A stretch of DNA of 64,000 bases, from positions 1,832-65,831 of the forward strand of contig CAWHRC010000006.1 in NCBI GenBank assembly GCA_963831755.1. The letters run 5' to 3'. Position numbers and translations under genes: made by a program. The notes under the pieces are model-generated. The model was not told the origin of the DNA and did not search any database. It worked only from the letters and a program-made list of their open reading frames with translations. Below are positions 1 to 11,586 of the stretch, piece after piece. Source of the stretch: an uncultured Acidobacteriota bacterium (GTDB lineage: Bacteria > Acidobacteriota > Vicinamibacteria > Fen-336). Within the stretch, counting starts at the first letter, position 1. Every line of letters starts with the position of its first letter.

Positions 1-351
1 TCGAATCCTCTCCACGATAATCGGGGTGTGTCGGCTGGCTGAACGTCGAAGGAACCGTGCGCTTACGTCGAACCTCTTCAGGTCCTCGAGGATGTGATCT
101 CCCGCTGCATCTTCGCCAAGTGTGGCTGCTGGATATGCCCGCCACCCCAAGTACGCTAGGACCGCGAGGACGTTGCCACACGTTCCACCTGCCCAGCAGC
201 GCGGACCCACTCCGGCCCGATCAGTCACGACGATGTCGAGTGCAATTAGCCCTGTGCCCAAGGCGACCGGTCGTCCTGTTGACAGGAACAGACTGTCGGC
301 GCGCGGGCGAAGGGACTGGACCGTGGGATGTCGCATCGAGTCATTCTTCAT
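1..351 (-). CDS. PfkB/ribokinase-like sugar kinase, N-terminal part only (gene runs off the window edge, so it is absent from the ORF track)
   Basis: Own reverse-complement translation from ATG 351..349: MKNDSMRHPTVQSLRPRADSLFLSTGRPVALGTGLIALDIVVTDRAGVGPRCWAGGTCGNVLAVLAYLGWRAYPAATLGEDAAGDHILEDLKRFDVSARFL... The stretch GLIALD...AGGTCGNVLAVLAYLG resembles the N-terminal PfkB signature (GG-x-x-N-x-A...LG). The ATG overlaps the TGA of the upstream gene (ATGA, 351..348). Confidence 0.5.
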   Translation of the reverse strand, partial: MKNDSMRHPTVQSLRPRADSLFLSTGRPVALGTGLIALDIVVTDRAGVGPRCWAGGTCGNVLAVLAYLGWRAYPAATLGEDAAGDHILEDLKRFDVSARFLRRSASRHTPIIVERIR

Positions 352-1445
352 GGAAGGTAGGGTTCTCCTGCGAGCCAGATCTCAGTGGGGCCGCGGCCCG
401 AACCGACTTCAAGCCTCCCTTGCCCATCGAGGAGGACTTGGTAAGTCCCCGCTTCGACATGGCAGACCGGCAACGAACGCTCGATCGCCGCTAGTAGCAT
501 GCCGAGGGACAAGGTCTTGCTCGAGAGAGGCGAAACAACAGTGGTGACTTTCCCGATTGACGGCACGGCACCAAGACGAGTGCGGTAATACTCCTCCACC
601 TCAAGTATCTTCCGGTACACATCGAAGGGGCTGCGCTCATCGCAAAGAAGGAGATTCTCGGGCGAGACCAAGAGTCCCTCGAACAAGAGCTCACCGTGCC
701 TAACGGCAATGTCGTCCACGCGTCGCAGCGAGACGGCGGGAAACGGGAGAATCGGGCAAATCTCGACACACGAGCCCTTGATCTTGTTGTGGAGCTTTTC
801 GAGGCGTACCGCTTCGCTCGTACCCACGAGCGGCAGCCAGACGAGCCTGTCGTCGCCCTGATGTCGAAACGTGTGGAGGTAGTCCGCCTGGCCATACTCG
901 CGCCCCGAAATGCGCGAATCCAAGATGGGATCCTCAACCACCGTGACGTGTAGATTTCGGAAGACGTCCTTCTCCACGAGCCGTAGGAGATAGGCCAGCA
1001 AGGGAAAGAAGACGCCCCGGGGCATGCCGCTGATATCGACCACGACGTCCGAATACTTGCGCAGGACTTCCGTTGCTTGAGTGCCCAATGCGGCCAATGT
1101 CTTCCTGCCGGCGACGTTGTGACCTTCAGGATCATGAGTCTCAACGTCATAAAGAGCCTCATGCCGGCAGCCAGTGATGGTCGGGAGTTCGTCGAGATTT
1201 GCCTTCGTTAGCCTCTCCATGACGACACCGGCCTCGCCCAGTGCCGGGGGCCCCTTAAGCTTCAGAGCGAGATAGCCGAGTCGTTCATCGAGGCCGAGGG
1301 CCGCCAGCGCCTTGAGCGCGAGGAGCGAGCGAGGGTCAAATCCTAGGCCGAGGACCATGAGGATGCGGACTCTGCTATCGCTTGCGCGGTCGGCCCAGAA
1401 GCCAGTGAAGTCCTCGGTGAGGTAGTAGTCCTTCCAGCGCGCCAT
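348..1445 (-). CDS. Hypothetical protein, Rossmann-like, family not recognised (possible ligand-binding/CARF-like fold)
   Basis: 365-aa ORF. Its ATG lies 5 nt after the stop of the upstream NTPase gene and its TGA overlaps the next ATG. It has strand-loop elements RILMVLGLGFDPRS and DVVVDISGMPRG. The latter fits the CARF-type [DN]-x-[ST]-x3-[RK] signature, by pattern only. Confidence 0.6.
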   Translation of the reverse strand: MARWKDYYLTEDFTGFWADRASDSRVRILMVLGLGFDPRSLLALKALAALGLDERLGYLALKLKGPPALGEAGVVMERLTKANLDELPTITGCRHEALYDVETHDPEGHNVAGRKTLAALGTQATEVLRKYSDVVVDISGMPRGVFFPLLAYLLRLVEKDVFRNLHVTVVEDPILDSRISGREYGQADYLHTFRHQGDDRLVWLPLVGTSEAVRLEKLHNKIKGSCVEICPILPFPAVSLRRVDDIAVRHGELLFEGLLVSPENLLLCDERSPFDVYRKILEVEEYYRTRLGAVPSIGKVTTVVSPLSSKTLSLGMLLAAIERSLPVCHVEAGTYQVLLDGQGRLEVGSGRGPTEIWLAGEPYLP

Positions 1446-1450
1446 CCCAG

Positions 1451-3406
1451 TTATCCTTCTCCCGACCAGAGAAGCGTGCCGGAAAGGGCGCTTCGGCGAG
1501 TCATATCGCGTGTCGGCACCGGCTCCTGCATCATCCTGACGAGTAGCTGAACGGGTAGGTGCTGCCAGCCACCGTAGTTCAGGGGAAGGCGGAACTTCAG
1601 ACAGAGCAGTCGGTTGAGATAGAAGACGATCTTTTCACTGCCGGCCTGGCCTTGTTTCGTTATGCGAATCGAGAGGACGTTCCCAGCGACAGCGCTCGTC
1701 AAGACCTCTCGAAAGACGAGGGCTTCAGGCCCTTTGTTCTGGCCTGACACGGCTTGCACTATCTCTTGGCGAGTCAGGCTGAACCCGTTCACTCCAGGCG
1801 CGATTGGAGCGTTGGGCCGATAGGTCACGTCCTCGCAGAATAGGCCCAGATTGTCCACGAACTGTCGGATCGAGGAACCACGGCGGTGCTTCTGCTCCAG
1901 AGCGCCGTAGTAGTCCTCGGCGGATCGCCTGAGAAGCGCCTCCTGTTCCTTGGCTGACATCGCCAGCTCGCGGTCCAGTTCGGCTCTATAGATCATGCGA
2001 TCGACAATTGCAGCAGCAGTCGATAGCAGCTGCTCCACATTGCCGCTTGCCACGCTCGTGAGCGCATCGAATCCGCTGTAGTACGGGAGTCGGAGCCGCC
2101 GACTCAGAAAGAGCGTCGCCGCTTCGGCTGTCTTCGCGTCGGCCGTCTCCGGAATCTCCATTTCTGGGAGGAGCGACGCCTGGCTGCGGTTCGCCTGCCT
2201 TTCCAGAAGAATCAGGGTCTTCTCGAAGTCTGCCAGTTGGGCGACGCTTGGCACAGTCTCGTGTGCACGCGCGCCCGCGGCGGTTAGCTTCTCCGCGAAG
2301 GTGTCGCCACTCCTAAGCTCGGATGAACGCTTGCGCATCCCCTCGAGGGCCTTGACCGCTAGCTCCGCCGCTACGGTTTCGTCAGGGGCTCGGAGTAGTT
2401 CCTTGAAGTCGCTTCCCGTTACCTGCTGGAGCGACTCCGTTGCCATGAGGCGCCGGTGCACAACGTTGGCCGAGAACTTCGCGAACACGCCCGCTCTCTC
2501 TTGAAAGATCTCATCCAGTGGTATCTCCCTATACTCCCGACCCTGCTCGGCTCCCTCAACTGAGATGAGTTCCTCAAGGCCAAAGACGTGTGTCCGTACG
2601 GCAAGCCAGCGCGGTATCGCCGTCCGCCGAATCAGTTCGTTCTTTAGGTGTTGCCGTTGATCAGGATAGAGTTCCTGAACATCGTCAAGCATGACGACCG
2701 GAATCAGCTCAGACAGCGCTGGAATCCTTTGGACCTGCAACGCCAAAAACGCGAGCGCGTAGACGCGCGCGTGGGGCTGTATCGAAGACGGGAGGGGATC
2801 GCCTGGAAAACTGTTGAGCAGCGTCCCGAAGTCTCGTTCAATCTGGGCACAAAGGTCCTCTAGTTGGTCGATCGTTCGGGATTCCCCAAACATGATCGGG
2901 GGGGCGTCTCCCGACGGGAGGGGTTCTAGGCGGCAGTCGGGTGGGAGCTGGACCGCCTCACTCGCTGCGAGGCGGCGAATCGCACGCAAGAAAGACATGA
3001 CAAGCCGCGTGTCGAGAAGCGCGTTGAAGAGGCGAAGCGTGCCCTCCTCAGGTGGGAGGTTCGCGATGTCTCGGAGGCTGCTATCACATTGGATGTAGAT
3101 TCCGATCGCCCTGGGCCCATGGTCGGTGAGGATTCCCAGCTCAGCGAGCCGGTCCACCAGGTCCTGGTCGCTCGGCTGGGATCTCCTAGCGTGGAGTGCG
3201 AGGAGAGTATCCGTCTCGAAAAGGCGCAGGAGACTCGACTTGCCGGACCCGGGACTCCCGCGAACGACTATCAGCTTTGGTACGAAGAGATCGTCGCGTT
3301 GGAGCTGGTCCAACAGCAGAGGGCAGTAGAGCTGGAGAAACTGAGAGGTCTCGATTATGGGCGCGTCTGCGGCGCGGATCTTGAACGCGTTGCGAACCCG
3401 CGGCAC
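1451..3406 (-). CDS. P-loop NTPase (AAA/STAND-like ATP-binding protein) with a long helical C-terminal region
   Basis: 651-aa ORF. Walker A is VVRGSPGSGKSSLL and Walker B-like is IPVVMLDDVQEL. The GTG start lies 2 nt after the stop of the upstream gene. Confidence 0.75.
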   Translation of the reverse strand: MPRVRNAFKIRAADAPIIETSQFLQLYCPLLLDQLQRDDLFVPKLIVVRGSPGSGKSSLLRLFETDTLLALHARRSQPSDQDLVDRLAELGILTDHGPRAIGIYIQCDSSLRDIANLPPEEGTLRLFNALLDTRLVMSFLRAIRRLAASEAVQLPPDCRLEPLPSGDAPPIMFGESRTIDQLEDLCAQIERDFGTLLNSFPGDPLPSSIQPHARVYALAFLALQVQRIPALSELIPVVMLDDVQELYPDQRQHLKNELIRRTAIPRWLAVRTHVFGLEELISVEGAEQGREYREIPLDEIFQERAGVFAKFSANVVHRRLMATESLQQVTGSDFKELLRAPDETVAAELAVKALEGMRKRSSELRSGDTFAEKLTAAGARAHETVPSVAQLADFEKTLILLERQANRSQASLLPEMEIPETADAKTAEAATLFLSRRLRLPYYSGFDALTSVASGNVEQLLSTAAAIVDRMIYRAELDRELAMSAKEQEALLRRSAEDYYGALEQKHRRGSSIRQFVDNLGLFCEDVTYRPNAPIAPGVNGFSLTRQEIVQAVSGQNKGPEALVFREVLTSAVAGNVLSIRITKQGQAGSEKIVFYLNRLLCLKFRLPLNYGGWQHLPVQLLVRMMQEPVPTRDMTRRSALSGTLLWSGEG

Positions 3407-3408
3407 CG

Positions 3409-4671
3409 CTACGCCCCCTCGCGGCCGTGGCGCTCATAGCGCACAAAGAGTGGATTGAAGTACTCCCTCCTGCGGGCCCACAGCACGTAGAGGGAGTTAT
3501 TGGGTGTGTTGTGGTGCAGCACGAGCGGCAGGCCGCATCTGTCGAAGCCAAACTTGACGCAGCCCGTGTGGTGATCCCCGAAGTCATCGGAGTAGTACTT
3601 CTCGCAGAGTGCACCGATGGGTGTGGCCGACGAGGTGACCTGAGTGTGGGAGCCCAAAACTGCGGCGGGCAGGATCTGCGTTCGCGCGAACGGCCCAGGG
3701 AGCCGAGGCAAGAGGGGTCGCAAGCGATTCAGAGCATGTTCCGTCGTGAGAAGCGGGCAGAAGAAGACGGCAGCAGTCGGGTCAAGAGCGTCCGCGAGGG
3801 CGCGGCCCGCCTTGCACAGCGCTCCCTTGAGAACGGTATCGGCCATCCTGCTCTTGTTCACGAGGGAGTTGACTGCAGCAATGTAGTCCTCATCGGTTCC
3901 CATTCGTAGCATGGATTCTTGGTCCGCGGCCGAAACGTCGCCTTCGTACAGAAGCTCGAGCTCGTGCGTCTCCTGGTGGTAGCGGAATCGCGACTGCCAG
4001 AGCTGGGGAATCGTCGGTGGAGTGGCGTGAGGACTCAATCCACCTACGACAACCTCACGGAGAAGGGTCCGGCCAGACCCCGTGAAGTCGTCAAGAAGAA
4101 AGAGACAGCGGAAGGCGGCAGCCGGAGCGCCGGAGGCCGCGCGAAGATCCTTGAGGATGTCCTTGACCTTCTCCGGCGAGGTCTCGTAGTAGGGAATCAC
4201 CTGCTCGTTGCTGATATCGAGATTGTGGCGACGGATGTAGTCGATCCTTGCTCCGTCGCTCATGCCAACGTAGAGGGATGCCCGAGCAACGGACTTGAAG
4301 TCGGCAGACTCATGAATGGCACGGACTCGATGGGGCGGGTGCCCGGAAGCAGCCGCCGCGATCTCGATCTGCCGCCTCCTGATCACGTCGTGGTACAGAA
4401 CGGCAGCGAGTTGTTGGAACTCCTGCCTCGAGATGAAGATCAAGTCACGCCGGACGAAGTCCAGAGCGGCTTGCCGTTCGCCCTCATCGAACTGCTGGAG
4501 CCAGAGGTAGAGATTCTCCAAGAACAGACGGCCTGGATGATACATCTCGTACTTGTTGTACTTGTAGTCGGCGAGGAATTGCAGCTCGCGAAAGAGGTTG
4601 GCGGCAGCCGCCTCGTCTGTGAGGCCAGGGAGCGTGGTCTGGAGAAGGCGAAGCGCGAGCTCCCTCTTCAA
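3409..4671 (-). CDS. Phosphoribosyltransferase-like (PRTase-fold) protein
   Basis: 420-aa ORF. A PRPP-loop-like motif CLFLLDDFTGSGRTLL sits mid-protein and the flanking regions are not recognised. The TTG start overlaps the upstream TGA (TTGA, 4671..4668). Confidence 0.55.
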   Translation of the reverse strand: MKRELALRLLQTTLPGLTDEAAAANLFRELQFLADYKYNKYEMYHPGRLFLENLYLWLQQFDEGERQAALDFVRRDLIFISRQEFQQLAAVLYHDVIRRRQIEIAAAASGHPPHRVRAIHESADFKSVARASLYVGMSDGARIDYIRRHNLDISNEQVIPYYETSPEKVKDILKDLRAASGAPAAAFRCLFLLDDFTGSGRTLLREVVVGGLSPHATPPTIPQLWQSRFRYHQETHELELLYEGDVSAADQESMLRMGTDEDYIAAVNSLVNKSRMADTVLKGALCKAGRALADALDPTAAVFFCPLLTTEHALNRLRPLLPRLPGPFARTQILPAAVLGSHTQVTSSATPIGALCEKYYSDDFGDHHTGCVKFGFDRCGLPLVLHHNTPNNSLYVLWARRREYFNPLFVRYERHGREGA

Positions 4672-6626
4672 GAGTGAAACCTCCTGGCTGACGTCGGCGA
4701 CAGAAGCCGTGGCACTGCAAGTCTGAAGGTGCCCTTGGAGATCTGAATGGCGTTAAGGTAGACGAGGGTTGCCTGAACGCCGCGGTACCCGGGCGGGGCC
4801 AGATTCCAGCAGGTGTTCGGATCGGCAGAGACCTCATCGACGCTCAACGAGAGCGGGGCCCTGAGCAGGTCGAAGTCATTCCCCGGCCACCGACCCTTGT
4901 CTCCAATGAGGAGCACTCGTGTGCCGTCTCGAAGGCCGCTCTCCAGTAGGGTGAGTAGCGAGCGTTTGGAAACTTGCCGCGTCACTAGATCCACGGAATG
5001 ACTGGACGTGATCGCTCGCAGGTCGTGGACCTGTGCCACCTCCTCTACAACGCGCCAAGTCAGATCTCTCCAGGCTGGCACCGTGGGTTGGACGGAGACT
5101 TGCGCCGACCTTGGCTCGCAAACGGCCGCTGCAGAGATCGCCGGGTGCCGTACTAGTAGGTCCGCGGCATAATCGAGAGATTCAGAACGTGGCAAAGAGG
5201 GGTTCGGATGGCCGTCCTCGCTGAGAGAGCCGATATCGGCTGCGTTGTAGTATCCGACATACACGTTCCTCCACAGCCGCTTGGGTAGTGCCTTCCTGAA
5301 GTCCTCCCTGACAGACCTTCCGCGACCGGTCGCCACCCCAACGGGAATGCCTGCCATCAGGAGGCGGCTCAGGTGGCCTACGACGTCCGGCCGAACACCG
5401 GTGAATCGATCCCGTTCGTCACACAAGGTGCCGTCGTAGTCGAGGACGATGGCGCCGAACACAGCTCGAGCGAGATCTGCGAGAAACCGCCGCTGAGCAT
5501 CCTGCCAAGGAGCGAGGTCTGTACGATCTGATAGTGCTTGAACGTCGCAGCCGAGTTTTCGTGCGATTGGGGCTGCGTCGGTTGAAGACAAAACCTTGAT
5601 CCGGGTCCGCGGAGTTCGGAGGCGATAGATCCGCCGCCCGAAGGCCGGGACTCCCGGTCGGCCCGGATCTATGCCGCGCACTTGCCCGGCAAACCCTACG
5701 AGATGGAGCACAGCAACGAGTCCCGCGACAGCGGCCGTGGACCCAGTGTGCGGCAGGCAGATTCGGACAACAGGAGTGGTGCGGGGAATGAGTGCCAGTG
5801 TCTTGTCGGCGAGGTCTTGTTCGTCAGAGGAGAACATTGCGACCACTGCCGTGGTCGAAGCGTGCTTGGCGAGCCAATGGTGTCGCCCGTGAGCGAAGTT
5901 TCGGAAGTCGGCAAGCTGAGTATTACCGAGTGCAGCCTCGGAGAACTTGGATTCCAGATCTACAGCAGCGGAGGATACGTTTGGTCCGTACAACATCACC
6001 AGGGTGTTCCGTTCCCAGAGAGCCTGGGACCTCGCGCGGAGCGCCCCTATTCCGTCACTACCGAAACCAGCGTAGGCAAGCAAGGCGTCGAACGAACGGG
6101 GAAGTTGCTCGCTCGAACCCGATACGGTGTTGTAGGCGCGCACCAGTAGAACGGCAAAGGCCAGAAGGGAATTCGTGGCCAGAAAGCCATCCTTGCCCCA
6201 CGGGGCTGCCAGTTCAACGAGGTCCACGAACCGGTACGACTGCGCGAGGCGAGAGAGAGAGCTTCGCTCCCGGAGGCAGAAGGCCGCGCACCGGCGTGGT
6301 TCTCTGCACGCGGCGCTCTCGAGCGCCGAGAGGATATCCGCGTTGGAACCACCGGCACTCAGGACCATCACGGCTAAAGAGCGGAGGTTGATGGGAGACG
6401 AGAGGAGCTCGAGCGGCGTAGTCGGCCGCGCCAGCTTGCCGGCATGGCGCTGATGGAGGAGGCACGCAAGGTGCGCGGCAGAGAACGAACCTCCGGACCC
6501 CACTGCGAGCAGGGGGAACGACGCACATGCAGAGACTGCTGCAGCCAGCGCGTCGATCGGCACCCCCAGCGCCCAGACATAGGTCTCGCTCAGTCGAGAC
6601 AGTTCACTGACGTAGGGTCTGCCCAT
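4668..6626 (-). CDS. SIS-SIS-HAD fusion protein (double sugar-isomerase/phosphosugar-binding domain plus HAD-IIB-like phosphatase)
   Basis: 652-aa ORF. SIS motifs are PLLAVGSGGSFSAAHL and VMVLSAGGSNADIL, with a second SIS-like half DLESKFSEAALGNTQLADFRNFAHGRHHW. C-terminal HAD motifs are DYDGTL (I), VGVATGRG (II) and LLIGDKGRWPGNDFDLL (IV). Confidence 0.7.
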   Translation of the reverse strand: MGRPYVSELSRLSETYVWALGVPIDALAAAVSACASFPLLAVGSGGSFSAAHLACLLHQRHAGKLARPTTPLELLSSPINLRSLAVMVLSAGGSNADILSALESAACREPRRCAAFCLRERSSLSRLAQSYRFVDLVELAAPWGKDGFLATNSLLAFAVLLVRAYNTVSGSSEQLPRSFDALLAYAGFGSDGIGALRARSQALWERNTLVMLYGPNVSSAAVDLESKFSEAALGNTQLADFRNFAHGRHHWLAKHASTTAVVAMFSSDEQDLADKTLALIPRTTPVVRICLPHTGSTAAVAGLVAVLHLVGFAGQVRGIDPGRPGVPAFGRRIYRLRTPRTRIKVLSSTDAAPIARKLGCDVQALSDRTDLAPWQDAQRRFLADLARAVFGAIVLDYDGTLCDERDRFTGVRPDVVGHLSRLLMAGIPVGVATGRGRSVREDFRKALPKRLWRNVYVGYYNAADIGSLSEDGHPNPSLPRSESLDYAADLLVRHPAISAAAVCEPRSAQVSVQPTVPAWRDLTWRVVEEVAQVHDLRAITSSHSVDLVTRQVSKRSLLTLLESGLRDGTRVLLIGDKGRWPGNDFDLLRAPLSLSVDEVSADPNTCWNLAPPGYRGVQATLVYLNAIQISKGTFRLAVPRLLSPTSARRFHS

Positions 6627-6671
6627 TTGCTCGATGACGTTGGCCGGCCCGCGACAGCCGCGGCGGACGCG

Positions 6672-6869
6672 CTAGGGGGGAGGAGGCCCATCCACTGCCG
6701 CTCCGCCGCTACGCACCCACTCGTCGACCTCCTCTTTCTTGAACTTCCAGAGCTTTCCGATTTTGTGCGCGGGGAGCCGTCGACGCTCGATCCATCGGTA
6801 CACGGACGCCTTCACGACGCCTAGGTACTCAGCGATCTCGTCGACTGACAACCATCGATCGGCGGCCAT
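6672..6869 (-). CDS. Excisionase/MerR-type helix-turn-helix DNA-binding protein
   Basis: Sequence is MAADRWLSVDEIAEYLGVVKASVYRWIERRRLPAHKIGKLWKFKKEEVDEWV, the classic excisionase-family HTH. I prefer the internal ATG at 6869 (GGAG just upstream) over the track start at 6980. It lies 45 nt upstream of the SIS-HAD gene on the same strand. Confidence 0.75.
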   Translation of the reverse strand: MAADRWLSVDEIAEYLGVVKASVYRWIERRRLPAHKIGKLWKFKKEEVDEWVRSGGAAVDGPPPP

Positions 6870-6924
6870 ATCTCCGGACCCCGCGTCGACATCCCACCTC
6901 GAGCGCGTCACAACAGTATGCCAG

Positions 6925-6950
6925 AGTATACTAGGAGTTAACAAAGTCAA
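6925..6950 (-). promoter_or_regulatory. Promoter-like elements upstream of the HTH gene (TTGACT-N14-TATACT on the minus strand) with an AGTATACT palindrome
   Basis: Minus-strand TTGACT is at 6950..6945 and TATACT at 6930..6925, in a locally AT-richer patch. The spacer is only 14 nt, so this is suboptimal. AGTATACT (6925..6932 on the plus strand) is self-complementary and a related CAGTATGC sits just beside it. Confidence 0.3.
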
Positions 6951-7274
6951 CTCTACACCGGCAGGGCCCTGGGGCCCCACGAGGTCCCCTCGTTACGAAC
7001 CTGAAGCACGTCAGCGCGACCTACGAGTCGCTGGATCTCCTCGCCAAGCGCTGCAGCCTGATATCCAGCGCTGGGTGTCCGGGGAGCCGGCTGCGCGGCA
7101 GCTGCTCAGGAGGGCGACGGACTCAGGCTAGGACCCACGCGACGTGCTCCGGAAGCTAGAGCAGGTCCTGAAGGAGGACGGGCGAGGGGAATGAGACCTT
7201 CGCGCGACCTCCAAGGCTCCTGGGGCCAGAGGCTGTGGACCGATAGGATGAGTTTGACGCGGCGGTGAACGACC

Positions 7275-7674
7275 TTGCCGCGGGGCGTCCAAGGCCGCAC
7301 GACCTTCTATACGGACGGGAAGCTCAAAGTCGAGATCAGGAGCGAGCTGTCCGACGAGGCCAATCACTCGATCGTCGCGCGTCGCAGCCTCCGCGACACG
7401 GTCGCTCACGAGTGCGGACACATCGGCTTCCACTGTCACCTGCGCGCGCTGAACGACGGGCCCAGGCTCCTCCCCGAAATACGCTCGCGAGCCATCGGTG
7501 CTTCGCCACACGCCGACGAGCGACAACCCTCAGGAACGGGCATCGGACTGGTGGGAGTATCAGGCAAACCGCGGAATGGCGGCGCTCCTCCTCCGGAAGG
7601 CGCCCTTCATGGAACACGCACGCCGGCGATCCAGGGCACGGAGCGATCTCAGGTTCAGTCGCAGCGCCCACTAT
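7275..7674 (+). pseudogene. ImmA/IrrE-family (COG2856-like) zinc metallopeptidase, frameshifted
   Basis: The HEXXH motif (VAHECGHIGFH) is in the frame of the ORF at 7275. The downstream family motif WEYQANRGMAALLL is in a different frame (from 7552, stop at 7674). At least one frameshift lies between them. A possible decayed HTH remnant lies upstream, around 6990-7130. Confidence 0.6.
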
Positions 7675-8157
7675 TAGGGAAAGACTACGGGTCTAACATC
7701 TCGCTGTCGTCGAGCCGCCACCTCGGCCCGGTGGCATCGTAGTTGTAGGACACGCGCCAGTTCCGGAAGTCGTCCTTGGTGAACCGGGCCTCCTCCACGA
7801 AGTCCACCGACGTCGCTGGCGCCTTCCGACGTCGGCTGGGAGCCCGAGCTGGAAGAGGTTCGTCAGCTTGATCTTCACGTTGCGCCCTTGACGCGGACGC
7901 GTACGGGCCAGTAGTGGCCGTCCCCGTTGTACCGCCCGCGCTCCTGGATTTGGACTGAGTCGACGACCGCCAGGTAGGTAGGGCCAGCCGTTGGCGGCGA
8001 GGGCGGCGATTTCCTGACCGCAGCGGTCACCTCTCCGTCGCTGGGCCCCGACTCCAGAAGGCGACACCCCAGGCCGCTCGTCAGCAAGAGTCCGCCTGCT
8101 ACCACTGCACGAGATTCGCCACGCGGACACGGTTCCTCCTCGGAGGCGTCCGTAGCC

Positions 8158-8857
8158 TCAGTCCGACGGGCTGCCACGCCTGCCTTGCGTCCTGCGGAGC
8201 GTCGTCCAGAACCCGAGCATCACCAGGCCGAGGCTCGCCGCTGCAACGCGCCACGGGCTCACCGACACGTTGACCCTCGGGGCGTGCCGACCCGCGGCGG
8301 CCACCAAGCGTGCCTGAGCCCGCTCCAGCGCGAGGACGACCCTCCGCACCGCTGGCCGCTCCGTCGGATCCGGCGCCAGCGCCTGCATCAGAACGCGCTC
8401 CAAGCCCGCGGTCCACCGCTGGCGCCAGCACACGAAGCGGCTTGGGCCGGTCCGCGAGTTGGAGCCTTCGGAGTGATGTGACGGACGCTCCTGGCGCCAC
8501 CTCGTAGGGGAGGCGGCCCCCCGCGAAGAGAGCGTAGAGCGTGGCGCCGAGCCCGTAGACGTCGTGGTGTGGGCCGACAGGCTCGCCCGCCAGCGCTTCC
8601 GGGGATGCGAACCGCGGCGTGCCGGTGATGCTGCCGGGAGGTGTCGACGCCGCCACCTCGGCCAGCCGCGCGATGCCAAAGTCGCTGACTTTGGCGGCTG
8701 GCCGTCCGGAGGTCGGAAGGAGCACGTTCGCCGGCTTGATGTCGCGGTGCAGCACGCCGTGGCGGTGCGCATGCCACACGCATCGGCTCACGGCCAGGGC
8801 GATCTCGTAGGCGCGGACCAGAGGGAGGCGTTCGCCGGCAGTGGCCAGCCGGTCCAG
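8158..8857 (-). pseudogene. Hanks-type Ser/Thr protein kinase, C-lobe plus C-terminal TM tail; N-terminus missing, one frameshift
   Basis: Sequence reads LDRLATAGERLPLVRAYEIALAVSRCVWHAHRHGVLHRDIKPANVLL...KVSDFGIARL...GTPRFASPE...DVYGLGATLYALFAG. It then changes frame near 8405-8412 to continue ERVLMQALAPDPTERPAVRRVVLALE...AAASLGLVMLGFW. No Gly-loop or VAIK region lies upstream on this strand. Confidence 0.8.
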
Positions 8858-8868
8858 CTCCTCCTGCA

Positions 8869-9017
8869 CCTGAGCTGCTGGAGCGAGTCCGGCAGGAGGT
8901 CCGCGCGGTACAGGCGCTCGCGACCCCTTACCTCGTCCACACCTACAGCCTCTTCGACCGCGGGACGATCGCCTGGTTCGAGATGGAGCTGGTGGATGGA
9001 CCGACGCATGAGCCGCC
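8869..9017 (+). pseudogene. Inverted fragment of the same or a related kinase (alpha-C helix to hinge)
   Basis: Plus-strand translation gives PELLERVRQEVRAVQALATPYLVHTYSLFDRGTIAWFEMELVDGPT(HEPP*), which is kinase subdomains III-V. It abuts the minus-strand C-lobe head to head at about 8868/8869. Un-inverting it would give ...MELVDGPT / LDRLATAGERLPL... Confidence 0.65.
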
Positions 9018-10954
9018 GTGAGTGGGTAGCCTGCCTCGGCGCGAGTCTGGGACTCCTGGCTGCCCACCGAGCTCCGGCCTGGCTTGCCTCGTCGAGTGGC
9101 TGGCCTGCTCTCGCGGCCGGCGAGCCTGCGACCGCGAACTACGTCACCTGGCTTCTCGTGCTTCCGCTGCCCGTCGTCGGCTCCATCCTCGCCTGCGGCC
9201 TGCTGACCTTCGCAGAGGTCCACGGCGTGGCCGGCCCGCAGCGGCGCCGGCGCCGACCGTTGCCGAGGTACCCGTTCGACTCCAGCACGACCCAGCTCGT
9301 CATCGGCGAGACTCACCTCCAGGACGGCTCGCGGTCGGAGCAGCCGGGCTGGCTCGTCCTGCCCGAGAAGGGCATGTACACGGGCATCCTCATCACCGGT
9401 GCCACCGGCTCCGCCAAGACCTCGGCGGCGCAGTACCCGTTCACAGCGCAGCTCATTCACCAGCACGCTCGAGACCCGGCCCGGAAGATGGGCGGACTCG
9501 TCATCGACGCCAAGGGCAACTACGCCGACTTCGCGCGCGAGCAGTGCGCCCTGGCCGGCCGGCTGGCCGACTACTACGAGGTCAGCCTCACGAGCGGCGT
9601 CCGCTGGAACATCATCGGCCGGCCGGACCTGAACGCGGCCGCCCTCGGCGGCCATATCGCGGACATGATCGAGAACGTCCAGGGGACCTCCCTGGCCGAC
9701 CCCTTCTGGCACCAGGAGGCGAAGGACCTGGCCTCTCAGGTGATCCGGGTTCTCCGGCTCGCCGAGGGGCGAGAGCCCACGATGGCCTCGCTCTACCGGG
9801 CAGCCACGTCCTACGAGGCCTTCGAGGAGTACGTGAAGCTGGCCGAGAAGCGCATCAACACCGCCGAGCAGCAGGAGGAGCTCGCCTCGATCAAGTTCTG
9901 GCTCGAGGCCAAGGCCGCGAAGCTGGACGCCAAGCTCAGGGCCTCCATCGCCGCCGGCCTGAATGGCGTGTGCTCCCTCTTCGACGATCCGAAGATCCGC
10001 GAGGTGTTCGCCCCGGACCCGCTTTGGGAGAACTTCAAGGGCTTCGACCGCCTCATCGAGGAAGGCCAGATCGTTGCCCTCCGCGTGCCGAAGTCCCAGC
10101 TCAAGACCGTTTCGACGATCGTCGGGACAATGACCAAGCTGAACTTCTTCGACGCGGTCCTCAACCGCCTGGCCCGAGCCGAGCACGCCTTCGGCGACGT
10201 CGGCCGCGGCGTCTTCTTCGTCGCGGACGAGTACGACGGGTACACCACGCAGCCCGGCGACGGAGACTTCTTCTCCAAGTGCCGTGAGGCTCAATGCTGT
10301 GCGGTGATCGCGACGCAGACCTACGAGAGCTTCGTGGCGAAGCTCAAGAACGAGCATGTGGCGGCGCAGCTCATCGCCAACCTCCGGACGAAGATCTGGC
10401 TCTGCGCCGAAGACAACTACACCGCGAGGCAGGCAGCAGACCTTTGTGGCGAAATCGAGCGGAAGAAAGTCAGTCGCTCCCGGAACGAGAGTGCACGGCA
10501 CTCGTCGTTCTCGTTCCTCGACGGCGACGTGATCGCCGCGGACCCAGGCTCCGTGGGCGAGGGCATCACGATCAGCCTTCGGCGAGAGCATCTCTTCACG
10601 CCCCGGGCCTTCACCAGCCTCAAGGTCAACCAGGCCATCGTCAAACTGTTCGACGGCGTGCGCGTCCTCGAGCCCTGGGTCGTCTACCTCAAGCCCATGC
10701 ACGAGAACCCGGAGGTGTCGTGGTTCGACACCACGGGACGCGCGCCGGAGGAGCCCGCCTCCGAACGGCCGTGCTCCCAGCTCAGGGCGTTGCGCGTCTT
10801 GACGCCCCTCCTCACGAGAGGCCTGAGGCTCTTGCGACTCCGGCCCTGGGCCTCGGTGCGTCCGTCTGCGGCGAGCCCACAGTCGCAGACTCCCCCCGCA
10901 GCACAGGAGACGGGCCAGACCAACCAGGACGGAATCCAAGCCTCTCACCCCTGA
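8996..10954 (+). CDS. Type IV coupling protein (TraD/TraG/VirD4-like conjugative ATPase)
   Basis: N-terminal TM helices (YVTWLLVLPLPVVGSILACGLLTF), Walker A ITGATGSAKTS, VIDAKGNY, Walker B FFVADEYD, and AVIATQTYESF. The start is taken at MDRRMSRREW (8996; alternative 9008) inside the 796-aa track ORF. Confidence 0.8.
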   Translation: MDRRMSRREWVACLGASLGLLAAHRAPAWLASSSGWPALAAGEPATANYVTWLLVLPLPVVGSILACGLLTFAEVHGVAGPQRRRRRPLPRYPFDSSTTQLVIGETHLQDGSRSEQPGWLVLPEKGMYTGILITGATGSAKTSAAQYPFTAQLIHQHARDPARKMGGLVIDAKGNYADFAREQCALAGRLADYYEVSLTSGVRWNIIGRPDLNAAALGGHIADMIENVQGTSLADPFWHQEAKDLASQVIRVLRLAEGREPTMASLYRAATSYEAFEEYVKLAEKRINTAEQQEELASIKFWLEAKAAKLDAKLRASIAAGLNGVCSLFDDPKIREVFAPDPLWENFKGFDRLIEEGQIVALRVPKSQLKTVSTIVGTMTKLNFFDAVLNRLARAEHAFGDVGRGVFFVADEYDGYTTQPGDGDFFSKCREAQCCAVIATQTYESFVAKLKNEHVAAQLIANLRTKIWLCAEDNYTARQAADLCGEIERKKVSRSRNESARHSSFSFLDGDVIAADPGSVGEGITISLRREHLFTPRAFTSLKVNQAIVKLFDGVRVLEPWVVYLKPMHENPEVSWFDTTGRAPEEPASERPCSQLRALRVLTPLLTRGLRLLRLRPWASVRPSAASPQSQTPPAAQETGQTNQDGIQASHP

Positions 10955-11208
10955 GAGGCGGTTCGCCGAGCGAGGCCCAGCGTGGTTCGCCTTGCCCGCC
11001 CCGCGGCGGCCGGCACCGCTTCCGTCTCCCACGGGAGTCCCGGAGCCCGCGACTTCATCCAGGCCTCGACGTTGTCTAGCACGAAGCCGCAGTTGCGTTC
11101 GGTGATGCGCACCGGCCGCGGGAACGCCCCGGCCTGGACCATCCGCCATAGCGTCGTTCGGGAAACGCCGATCATCTCGAGCACCTGCCGAGGTCTTATG
11201 AACTGCAC
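10945..11208 (-). CDS. AlpA-family phage/ICE transcriptional regulator (HTH)
   Basis: Sequence is MQFIRPRQVLEMIGVSRTTLWRMVQAGAFPRPVRITERNCGFVLDNVEAWM, a typical AlpA/Phage_AlpA pattern. It is convergent with the T4CP gene and overlaps it by 10 nt. Confidence 0.8.
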   Translation of the reverse strand: MQFIRPRQVLEMIGVSRTTLWRMVQAGAFPRPVRITERNCGFVLDNVEAWMKSRAPGLPWETEAVPAAAGRARRTTLGLARRTASQG

Positions 11209-11586
11209 CGTCCACCTCCGATTCGCTGCCCACGGCCACTAGGCCACACACGGTGCAAGTCGGAGACCACGACGCCAGACGATCAGTCGCGTCGTAAGTC
11301 CTTGTCCTTCAGCAGCCCACCTTCACGCGGCTGTCTCGCAAGTGAGAAGAGAGTCCACGGCGATTTCAGCCGAGAGATGACGGCGGAAGTCGTTCGTCGG
11401 ATGTCGTGCGAACTGCCGGCCTGCCCTGCTGGAACGCCCAGCACACTACGAACGAGGCTCGCTTTTCGCCTTGACTGAGGAGTCCAGATTCCCTTGTTCG
11501 GCGACGCGGTCCAACCCCCCGTGCCAATAATCCGTGAGACACCGAGCCGTCCGAGATTAGTGTAGGGGGCGGGGAGGCTGAGATGG

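Follow-up and report, generated by a model that had tools for sequence, protein, structure and literature searches.

A five-gene cassette from an uncultured Acidobacteriota bacterium as a putative mobile conflict system with a phosphoribosyltransferase-like protein

We analysed a stretch of 64,000 nucleotides (nt) from an uncultured Acidobacteriota bacterium (GenBank assembly GCA_963831755.1, contig CAWHRC010000006.1, positions 1,832 to 65,831), which in its full length is referred to as the window and to which all positions refer unless another locus is named. The segment 1-6626 carries, on the minus strand, five co-directional genes whose stops and starts overlap or nearly abut, and which we denote A to E: A (4668..6626) encodes a fusion of a double-SIS part to a HAD-IIB part, a putative phosphatase or mutase, of 652 amino acids (aa); B (3409..4671) a phosphoribosyltransferase-like (PRTase-like; PRTase-CE) protein with an N-terminal helical domain; C (1451..3406) an ORC/Cdc6-like AAA+ ATPase; D (348..1445) a CARF-type protein with tandem Rossmann-like domains, predicted to bind a ligand; and E (1..351) a PfkB-family kinase, cut at the window start so that only its N-terminal 117 codons are present. 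A and B overlap by 4 nt, as do D and E. A preliminary description of this DNA, made from the letters of the stretch, had recognised the SIS, HAD, PfkB and PRTase superfamilies in this segment, and all four assignments proved correct, the features lying on the minus strand at the stated coordinates. In the following we describe the five genes, their genomic context and the function that the cassette they form may have.

The five genes of the cassette

An AlphaFold model of A was built from 28 homologues and reached a mean predicted local distance difference test score (pLDDT) of 86.7. The double-SIS part (residues ~1-325, nt 5652-6626) matches NagB-II, the isomerase domain of GlmS, the archaeal GlmD and Lmo0035 (Foldseek E ~1e-12, target template-modelling score (TM) 0.64-0.74). 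All of the top 50 Foldseek matches of the model were two-domain SIS proteins (GlmS, NagB-II, GlmD and Lmo0035-type), GmhA being absent from them, and the GmhA models of Pfam and NCBIfam gave no match for A either. The catalytic pattern K-x2-E-x15-H-G is kept: K227, E230 and H246-G247 are invariant in the 28-sequence alignment (K227/E230/H246 at nt 5886-5960), and the profile alignment of A to PDB 2aml spans the E-x-K-F-S-E and H-G positions. The spacing of K227/E230/H246 is that of K485/E488/H504 in GlmS. A clustering with amino-sugar or fructosamine enzymes, which the preliminary description had named as speaking against its own reading, is thus found at the level of the fold (the GlmS/NagB-II/FrlB class), yet the identity of A to characterised SIS enzymes is only 13-20%.

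The C-terminal part of A (residues ~388-625, nt 4752-5465) matches the Cof/HAD-IIB models of NCBIfam (TIGR00099, 5.8e-5; TIGR01484, 6e-4) as well as PDB 2pq0 and other Cof-type proteins, and the model contains an inserted alpha/beta cap at residues ~460-540. These matches and the cap agree with the earlier view that this HAD domain is IIB-like and not of the GmhB subtype. The four HAD motifs are DYDGT (nt 5427-5441), ATGRG, K554 and GDKGRWPGND (nt 4875-4904), and all of them are invariant over the 28 sequences (D396, D398, T400, T433, K554, D576, N583 and D584). The DYDGT motif had been reported before and is present, whereas the spacing given for the last motif, GDxxxxxND, has to be corrected to GD-x6-ND. 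Both halves of A look catalytically competent, because the K/E/H residues of the SIS part and all motifs of the HAD part are invariant. More than 4253 relatives of A are found in the databases, all of ~650 aa, and PADLOC v2 holds no match for it.

B matches the Pfam family PF24390 (PRTase-CE) at 7e-18 and the PADLOC model PRTase_III-A at 7e-14, the latter match covering the loop that binds 5-phosphoribosyl 1-pyrophosphate (PRPP) and the C-terminal region. The PRPP loop, LFLLDDFTGSGRT (nt 4066-4104), aligns with that of the orotate phosphoribosyltransferase 3mjd. Its loss in homologues, the other point that the preliminary description had named as speaking against its reading, was not seen: D194 and D195 of the loop are invariant across 25 homologues. 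B also holds the retron-type Gx14PNN motif (G375-x14-P390-N391-N392, nt 3496-3549), with G375, P390 and N391 invariant. Both xDDFxGSG (DDFTGSG in the window) and Gx14PNN are conserved in all B subfamilies, and the final P of the retron-type Gx14PNNxP is replaced. The N-terminal domain, of ~130 aa, is distinct. In the subclade to which the B of the window belongs (together with those of the related loci L001, L003 and L004) an insertion of ~60-80 residues occurs right after the PRPP loop (window 3800-4050, minus strand, B residues ~207-290), which is absent from the other subfamilies.

Mutation of the PRPP motif of Retron-Eco11, TDTIGSG, abolishes defence, the motif Gx14PNNxP is specific to the PRTase effectors of retrons, and activation of Retron-Eco11 brings PRPP down by about half and leads to abortive infection (PMC12746101). 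ShosT is a second PRTase toxin that needs to bind PRPP (PMC12961424). By its sequence B is homologous to the PRTase effectors of type III-A retrons and has an intact PRPP loop, and it is the best candidate for the effector of the cassette because it has both retron PRTase motifs and because of the precedents set by Eco11 and ShosT.

C matches the Pfam family PF24389 at 4.7e-36 over residues 38-609. Its Walker A (GSPGSGKS, nt 3236-3259) and Walker B (VVMLDDV, nt 2678-2698) motifs are both intact, and G53, G55, K56, D241 and D242 are conserved. C is the fastest-evolving and most divergent member of the cassette, and PADLOC v2 gave no match for it at all. D, on the other hand, matches the PADLOC family CARF6 over its full length (1.7e-74) and shows no similarity to kinases. 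Sequence-profile searches of C and D against the PDB yielded nothing useful. The model of D (pLDDT 91.2) consists of two tandem Rossmann-like domains, the first of which is six-stranded with a beta5-beta6 hairpin (strands 164-169 and 179-184) and carries the signature D137-I-S139-G-M-P-R143 (DISGMPR, nt 1017-1037) directly after strand 4 (133-137). The CARF signature has been defined as [DN]X[ST]XXX[RK] (PMC4012209). Foldseek matches of D include tandem universal stress protein (USP) folds and the CARF domain of Csm6 bound to cA6 (9w3v). According to the model D has a CARF-type fold and is predicted to bind a ligand.

The fragment of E is 65% identical to the N-terminus of the full-length E of L003, which has the same position in a homologous locus. 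Against the PfkB model of Pfam the 117 residues score 8.5e-6 and 25.7 bits (cut-off 25.8), and they contain the GG motif AGGTCGN (nt 172-192). Full-length orthologues at the same position carry the GG motif and DTxGAGD. A PfkB-like kinase indeed closes the operon, as had been described, with its first 117 codons (nt 351-1) inside the window. The nearest relatives of the cassette kinase are fructokinase, ketohexokinase and ribose-1-phosphate kinase. Four cysteines are conserved in full-length E (L003 14278-15405 and others), two of them in a lid insertion (CPxCG) and two at the C-terminus (CPxC). They suggest a zinc ribbon, which would be unusual among PfkB kinases, and this motif is missing from the shorter E of the divergent clade (L085).

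The enzymes invite a comparison with the synthesis of ADP/GDP-heptose (GmhA, HldA/HldE, GmhB and HldC), with which the cassette shares the joint presence of the SIS, PfkB and HAD superfamilies. The preliminary description had drawn this analogy, with the PRTase-like protein in the place of the nucleotidyltransferase. The cassette would then be a housekeeping or secondary-metabolite pathway that supplies the cell itself with an unusual nucleotide-like product. The presence of the four enzyme superfamilies with intact catalytic motifs speaks for such a pathway, as does the proposal that the PRTases of a Ter-linked system make a nucleotide-like metabolite (PMC5512222). At the level of the subfamilies, however, the analogy fails. 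The SIS part is of the two-domain GlmS/FrlB class, whereas GmhA has a single domain; the HAD part has a IIB cap, whereas GmhB is capless; the cassette kinase scores 18.3 bits on the model of the HldE kinase (TIGR02198 rfaE_dom_I), for which the cut-off is 345; and a nucleotidyltransferase (HldC/HldE-C) was found in the cassette at none of the 98 loci that were compared. The cassette furthermore adds an AAA+ ATPase and a CARF-like protein, which make up about half of the operon, and no glycosyltransferase, exporter or biosynthetic neighbour recurs. Its distribution, described below, is uneven and shaped by horizontal transfer, with copies on plasmids and on islands beside defence genes. We consider such a pathway improbable. 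The earlier reading is nevertheless partly supported, in that nucleotide-like or N-ribosyl small-molecule chemistry is plausible. It had taken into account neither C and D nor the mobile surroundings with their defence islands, nor that the PRTase is homologous to a validated anti-phage effector of retrons.

Distribution, genomic context and variants

A-B-C-D-E is a conserved, translationally coupled operon of bacteria, archaea and plasmids. All five genes are present, nearly always in this order, in 78 of the 98 related loci that were fetched, and most of the others are truncated contigs; with the window included, we counted 71 loci of the plain A-B-C-D-E type and 7 in which a NADAR gene is added. 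Among species-representative genomes there are at least 533 matches to A. The hosts comprise Acidobacteriota, Cyanobacteria, Alpha-, Beta-, Gamma- and Deltaproteobacteria, Planctomycetota, Chloroflexota, Bacillota, Actinomycetota and methanogenic archaea, and across this range A remains 40-60% identical, which argues for horizontal spread. A conserved sixth gene was sought in the flanks of the clade of the window and none was found. Clustering of 3087 flanking open reading frames (ORFs) gave no family that occurs in more than 6 loci, and the five genes are therefore the whole conserved unit. A is carried by 20 plasmids, 10 of which are conjugative, and C was not seen on any plasmid without A (19 of 19). 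Full cassettes are present, for example, on the Agrobacterium tumefaciens plasmid pAtA74a_b (21513-28686), in Geobacter hydrogenophilus DSM 13691 and in Azospirillum oryzae A2P. We dismissed an origin from phages, since A is missing from all phages in INPHARED and present on only 4 viral contigs in IMG/VR.

The fold of A and its partnership with a PfkB kinase could also be taken to mean that the operon serves the breakdown of amino sugars or of Amadori compounds such as fructosamines and opines, in the manner of FrlB/FrlD or AgaS/NagB-II. A double-SIS protein of the GlmS/NagB-II/FrlB class next to a PfkB kinase mirrors FrlB and FrlD, several homologues have been annotated as FrlB-like by the Joint Genome Institute (JGI), and many copies reside on rhizobial and Agrobacterium plasmids. 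Against this stand the lack of a conserved adjacent transporter or catabolic regulator, the obligate linkage to B, C and D, the presence of the cassette in methanogens and cyanobacteria, and the low identity to characterised SIS enzymes mentioned above. We regard a catabolic role as very improbable.

Otherwise unrelated between loci, the flanks of the cassette abound in BREX, DISARM, MADS and restriction-modification genes, in integrases and in transposons. Its direct neighbours in the related loci are, among others, an MmeI/Eco57I-type enzyme accompanied by an SNF2 helicase, the proteins AIPR and HsdM, a DISARM-like set of PLD, MZB and helicase proteins, DUF1156/DUF499/HEPN genes with SMODS, a TIR protein in a prophage-like region, Tn7-like TniQ/TniB, integrases and insertion sequence (IS) elements. 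In the flanks of ~55 loci 62 large ORFs match 116 PADLOC families at E<=1e-10, among which BrxH, DrmD, mad2, Hma, PbeA, DpdE and DrmA, and 36 control ORFs (window 14-64 kb) match 2 families, both of them generic cysteine desulfurases, a comparison that is indicative, with a single genome as control and no statistical test. In L089 (5494-20247) the cassette is embedded in a prophage-like region: the gene for a large terminase lies on one side of it and a separate C-terminal terminase fragment on the other, and a gene of the CAP12/TIR-domain type and an integrase are situated downstream. Two plasmids carry genes resembling nucleoside 2-deoxyribosyltransferases within a few kb of the cassette (L084 18980-19540 and L097 6110-6985); such proteins are another family of nucleotide-targeting effectors that is seen in retrons.

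In the window itself the cassette has a G+C content of 61%, as compared to 70% for the region of 12-64 kb. A gene for an HTH_17 protein (excisionase/MerR-like and PADLOC mad1-like; 6672..6980, minus strand; Pfam HTH_17 1.8e-18, PADLOC mad1 7e-14) ends 45 nt upstream of A. L003 is the only one of the 98 loci with a homologue upstream of A, and there it is placed between the cassette and a cluster of DUF1156/DUF499/HEPN (MADS/BREX-like) genes. The gene may be a regulator or a part of a mobile element and not a core member of the cassette. Further upstream follow an ORF for a TraD/TrwB-like coupling protein (8564-10954, plus strand), an AlpA gene (10945-11208) and an IS3-type transposase gene (from 11587). 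The coupling-protein ORF is overlapped by a long minus-strand ORF (8099-11251 region), the low-coordinate end of which (~8100-8900) reads like the catalytic core of a Ser/Thr kinase (HRDIKPANVLL and DFGIA), probably a kinase fragment beside the remnant of a conjugative element. Positions 14000-64000 are ordinary chromosome with 70% G+C, encoding an ATPase of type II secretion or type IV pili (T2SS/T4P), AcrB/HlyD efflux, a SpoIIE phosphatase, LigD and response regulators. We place the cassette within a mobile island because of its low G+C content and its TraD, AlpA and IS3 neighbours, with ordinary chromosomal genes beyond. Neither RNAs of Rfam, riboswitches included, nor promoter-like signals were found in window 1-9000, and the three terminator-like sites in that region are no excess over shuffled sequence. 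The window holds no tRNA gene that would mark an integration site.

Divergent cassettes, in which A is ~28-36% identical, occur on plasmids of rhizobia, Burkholderia, Sphingomonas, Bosea and Paenarthrobacter. They hold the same five families in a permuted order, for instance B-C-D-A-E or A-E followed by B-C-D, and two plasmids combine two B-C-D trios with a single A-E pair (Sinorhizobium pRRI128_5, L085 4650-16908; R. tumorigenes pRt1078, L094 9393-21857). A NADAR gene (PF08719), ~70% identical between hosts, is attached to the cassette in at least 10 loci and is often the first gene of such variants; it is absent from the clade of the window. In L093, L095 and L102 the arrangement is NADAR-A-B-C-D, with no PfkB kinase (E). 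Divergent cassettes carry an Xre-type helix-turn-helix (HTH) gene in addition to NADAR. NADAR domains are ribosyl N-glycosidases that act on phosphoribosylamino-pyrimidines and on ADP-ribose conjugates, and they replace Macro domains as the antitoxin of DarT-like toxins (PMC9503650). At the same length A is far better conserved than C (2e-171 versus 3e-27 in L015), and B co-varies with C and D rather than with A and E. We read the cassette as two modules, a fast-evolving sensor-effector trio (B-C-D) and a slow small-molecule module of A, E and sometimes NADAR.

A putative role in conflict

The AAA+ and CARF-like genes, the location among mobile elements and defence islands, and the kinship of the PRTase with a retron effector lead us to favour a role in conflict over one in biosynthesis. 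In our view the five genes rather probably belong to a conflict system that is widespread and moves horizontally, and that is most likely directed against phages or plasmids; the region would hold one copy of it. In such a system B, C and D would form a sensor-effector module: C would sense a cue from the invader, D would bind a nucleotide-like ligand, and together they would gate and release B. B would use PRPP, either by draining it or by N-phosphoribosylating an amine, for instance on a nucleobase, and growth would be arrested as a result. The N-(phospho)ribosyl or ketoamine compound formed in this way would be the substrate of A, E and, in the variants, NADAR: A could carry out an Amadori-type isomerisation or deglycation plus a dephosphorylation, the kinase E could re-phosphorylate and NADAR could cleave the N-glycosidic bond. 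Most likely they would process the product or undo it, so as to protect the cell itself or to reset the system. Such a role in processing or reset is suggested because A or NADAR is usually the first gene of the operon and because a hydrolase can take the place of the kinase.

In chemical terms, the bond that PRTases form links C1 of ribose-5-phosphate to a nitrogen. Amadori-type isomerases naturally act on N-ribosylamines, as with HisG/HisA and TrpD/TrpF, and the GlmS/NagB-II/FrlB class catalyses aldosamine/ketosamine chemistry, with FrlB being paired to the PfkB kinase FrlD. The simplest common theme would be an N-(phospho)ribosyl compound that is made from PRPP by B and processed or removed by A, E and NADAR. 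A more specific proposal, that immunity operates through PRPP-dependent N-phosphoribosylation, is tentative and on the whole doubtful. B would write an adduct on a nucleobase or another amine, the target of which could be a nucleotide, DNA, RNA or protein; A (as isomerase or deglycase plus phosphatase), E and NADAR would process or erase this adduct; and the whole would be the phosphoribosyl counterpart of the toxin-antitoxin logic of ADP-ribosylation, gated by an AAA+ sensor and a CARF-like receptor that would bind a new ligand.

If the adducts were placed on the bases of DNA or RNA, the cassette might serve the competition of mobile elements instead: B, controlled by the ORC-like ATPase, would phosphoribosylate nucleic acids, A, E and NADAR would edit or erase the marks, and it would be the mobile element that profits, for instance by exclusion, addiction or anti-defence. 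ATPases of the ORC/Cdc6 type usually bind DNA, which would suit this role, and copies are often met on conjugative plasmids and on integrative elements, while four lie on the viral contigs of IMG/VR. NADAR, moreover, strips ADP-ribose from macromolecular conjugates in DarT-like systems (PMC9503650). Yet a conserved nuclease or restriction partner is missing, nothing indicates that B acts on polymers, and many copies are chromosomal and lie inside defence islands, so that we hold this modification of nucleic acids to be quite unlikely.

The order of events could also be the reverse of the one proposed above, with A, E and B together turning a sugar phosphate and PRPP into a nucleotide-like second messenger, D sensing it and C executing the response. 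CARF domains typically bind nucleotide-derived messengers (PMC4012209). The combination of one A-E pair with two B-C-D trios would fit a single generator with several receivers, and A and E are the most conserved members, as is expected of enzymes that make a fixed molecule. C, however, has no recognisable toxic domain and the closest characterised relatives of B are effectors; B follows C and D in its variation and not A and E; the replacement of the kinase by the NADAR hydrolase in some systems is hard to fit to a route of synthesis; and nothing in the module of A and E resembles a sensor of infection. A defence that starts from such a signal is therefore, to our judgement, unlikely.

The reading of the cassette as a conflict system in which B is the effector has its own difficulties. 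No experiment on any of the members was found in the literature, and a role in defence is derived from the context and from the homology of one component. The five genes match no defined system of PADLOC v2, in which only B (as retron PRTase) and D (as CARF6) match models, and the cassette has no obvious nuclease, pore or NADase. The PRTase is the only precedent for toxicity, and the chemistry of Eco11 is known just as a drop in PRPP of ~50%. One subfamily of D lacks R143, the basic residue of the CARF signature, and the comparison of the flanks given above has a single genome as its reference. The data would, finally, fit A and E making the substrate, finishing the product or reversing it.

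Relation to known systems

A search of the full-text literature gave no description of the cassette and no experiment on it, the 2020 classification of CARF proteins, which may mention the neighbourhood, being outside the reach of that search; the cassette is not mentioned in the eLife 2020 paper on conflict systems nor in the CoCoNuT paper. Its components have already been noticed computationally, as there are Pfam models for B and C and a CARF6 family in PADLOC, and no system of PADLOC v2 includes A or C. Should the cassette be a defence system, it would be a common one: relatives occur in at least 533 species-representative genomes and make up more than 4000 protein clusters, they come from bacteria as well as archaea, and conjugative plasmids carry them too. 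A PRTase effector, of a kind seen so far in retrons and ShosTA only, would in it be joined to a control layer of the AAA+/CARF type and to sugar-phosphate enzymes, for which immunity offers no precedent. The module of A and E (and NADAR) would provide a biochemical handle on what the retron-type PRTase effectors do with PRPP and, likewise, on the ligand of CARF domains outside CRISPR.

Retron-Eco11 (type III-A3), a validated abortive-infection effector system tied to PRPP depletion, shares with B the PRPP motif (TDTIGSG in Eco11, DDFTGSG in B) and Gx14PNN. The cassette differs from it in having no reverse transcriptase or multicopy single-stranded DNA (msDNA), B has the distinct N-terminal domain of ~130 aa and lacks the final P of Gx14PNNxP, and its partners are an AAA+ ATPase, a CARF-like protein and sugar-phosphate enzymes. 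ShosTA is likewise a defence system with a non-canonical PRTase as the toxin, which must bind PRPP (PMC12961424). B, however, matches no ShosT model of PADLOC, and the partner in ShosTA is a DprA-like antitoxin and not a set of AAA+, CARF, SIS-HAD and PfkB proteins.

With FrlB/FrlD and GlmS/NagB-II/AgaS the cassette has in common the double-SIS fold (target TM ~0.7), the pattern K-x2-E-x15-H-G and a PfkB partner. It is set apart from them by the low identity of A (13-20%), the fusion of its SIS part to HAD-IIB, the absence of transport or regulatory genes and the constant linkage to B, C and D. The likeness to the CARF signalling of type III CRISPR-Cas lies in D, which belongs to CARF6, shows the beta5-beta6 hairpin and the signature that follows strand 4, and resembles the CARF domain of Csm6 in structure. 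In contrast to type III systems, there is no Cas10 or other cyclase near the cassette, no effector domain is fused to D, and D combines two tandem Rossmann-like domains in one chain. DarT-NADAR and DarTG, lastly, resemble those variants that carry NADAR, often as the first gene and thus in an antidote-like position, but the putative modifier of the cassette is a PRPP-dependent PRTase and not an NAD-dependent ADP-ribosyltransferase. We see in the cassette an uncharacterised form of the defence that is based on PRTase and CARF proteins, in which the module of sugar-phosphate enzymes is unprecedented.

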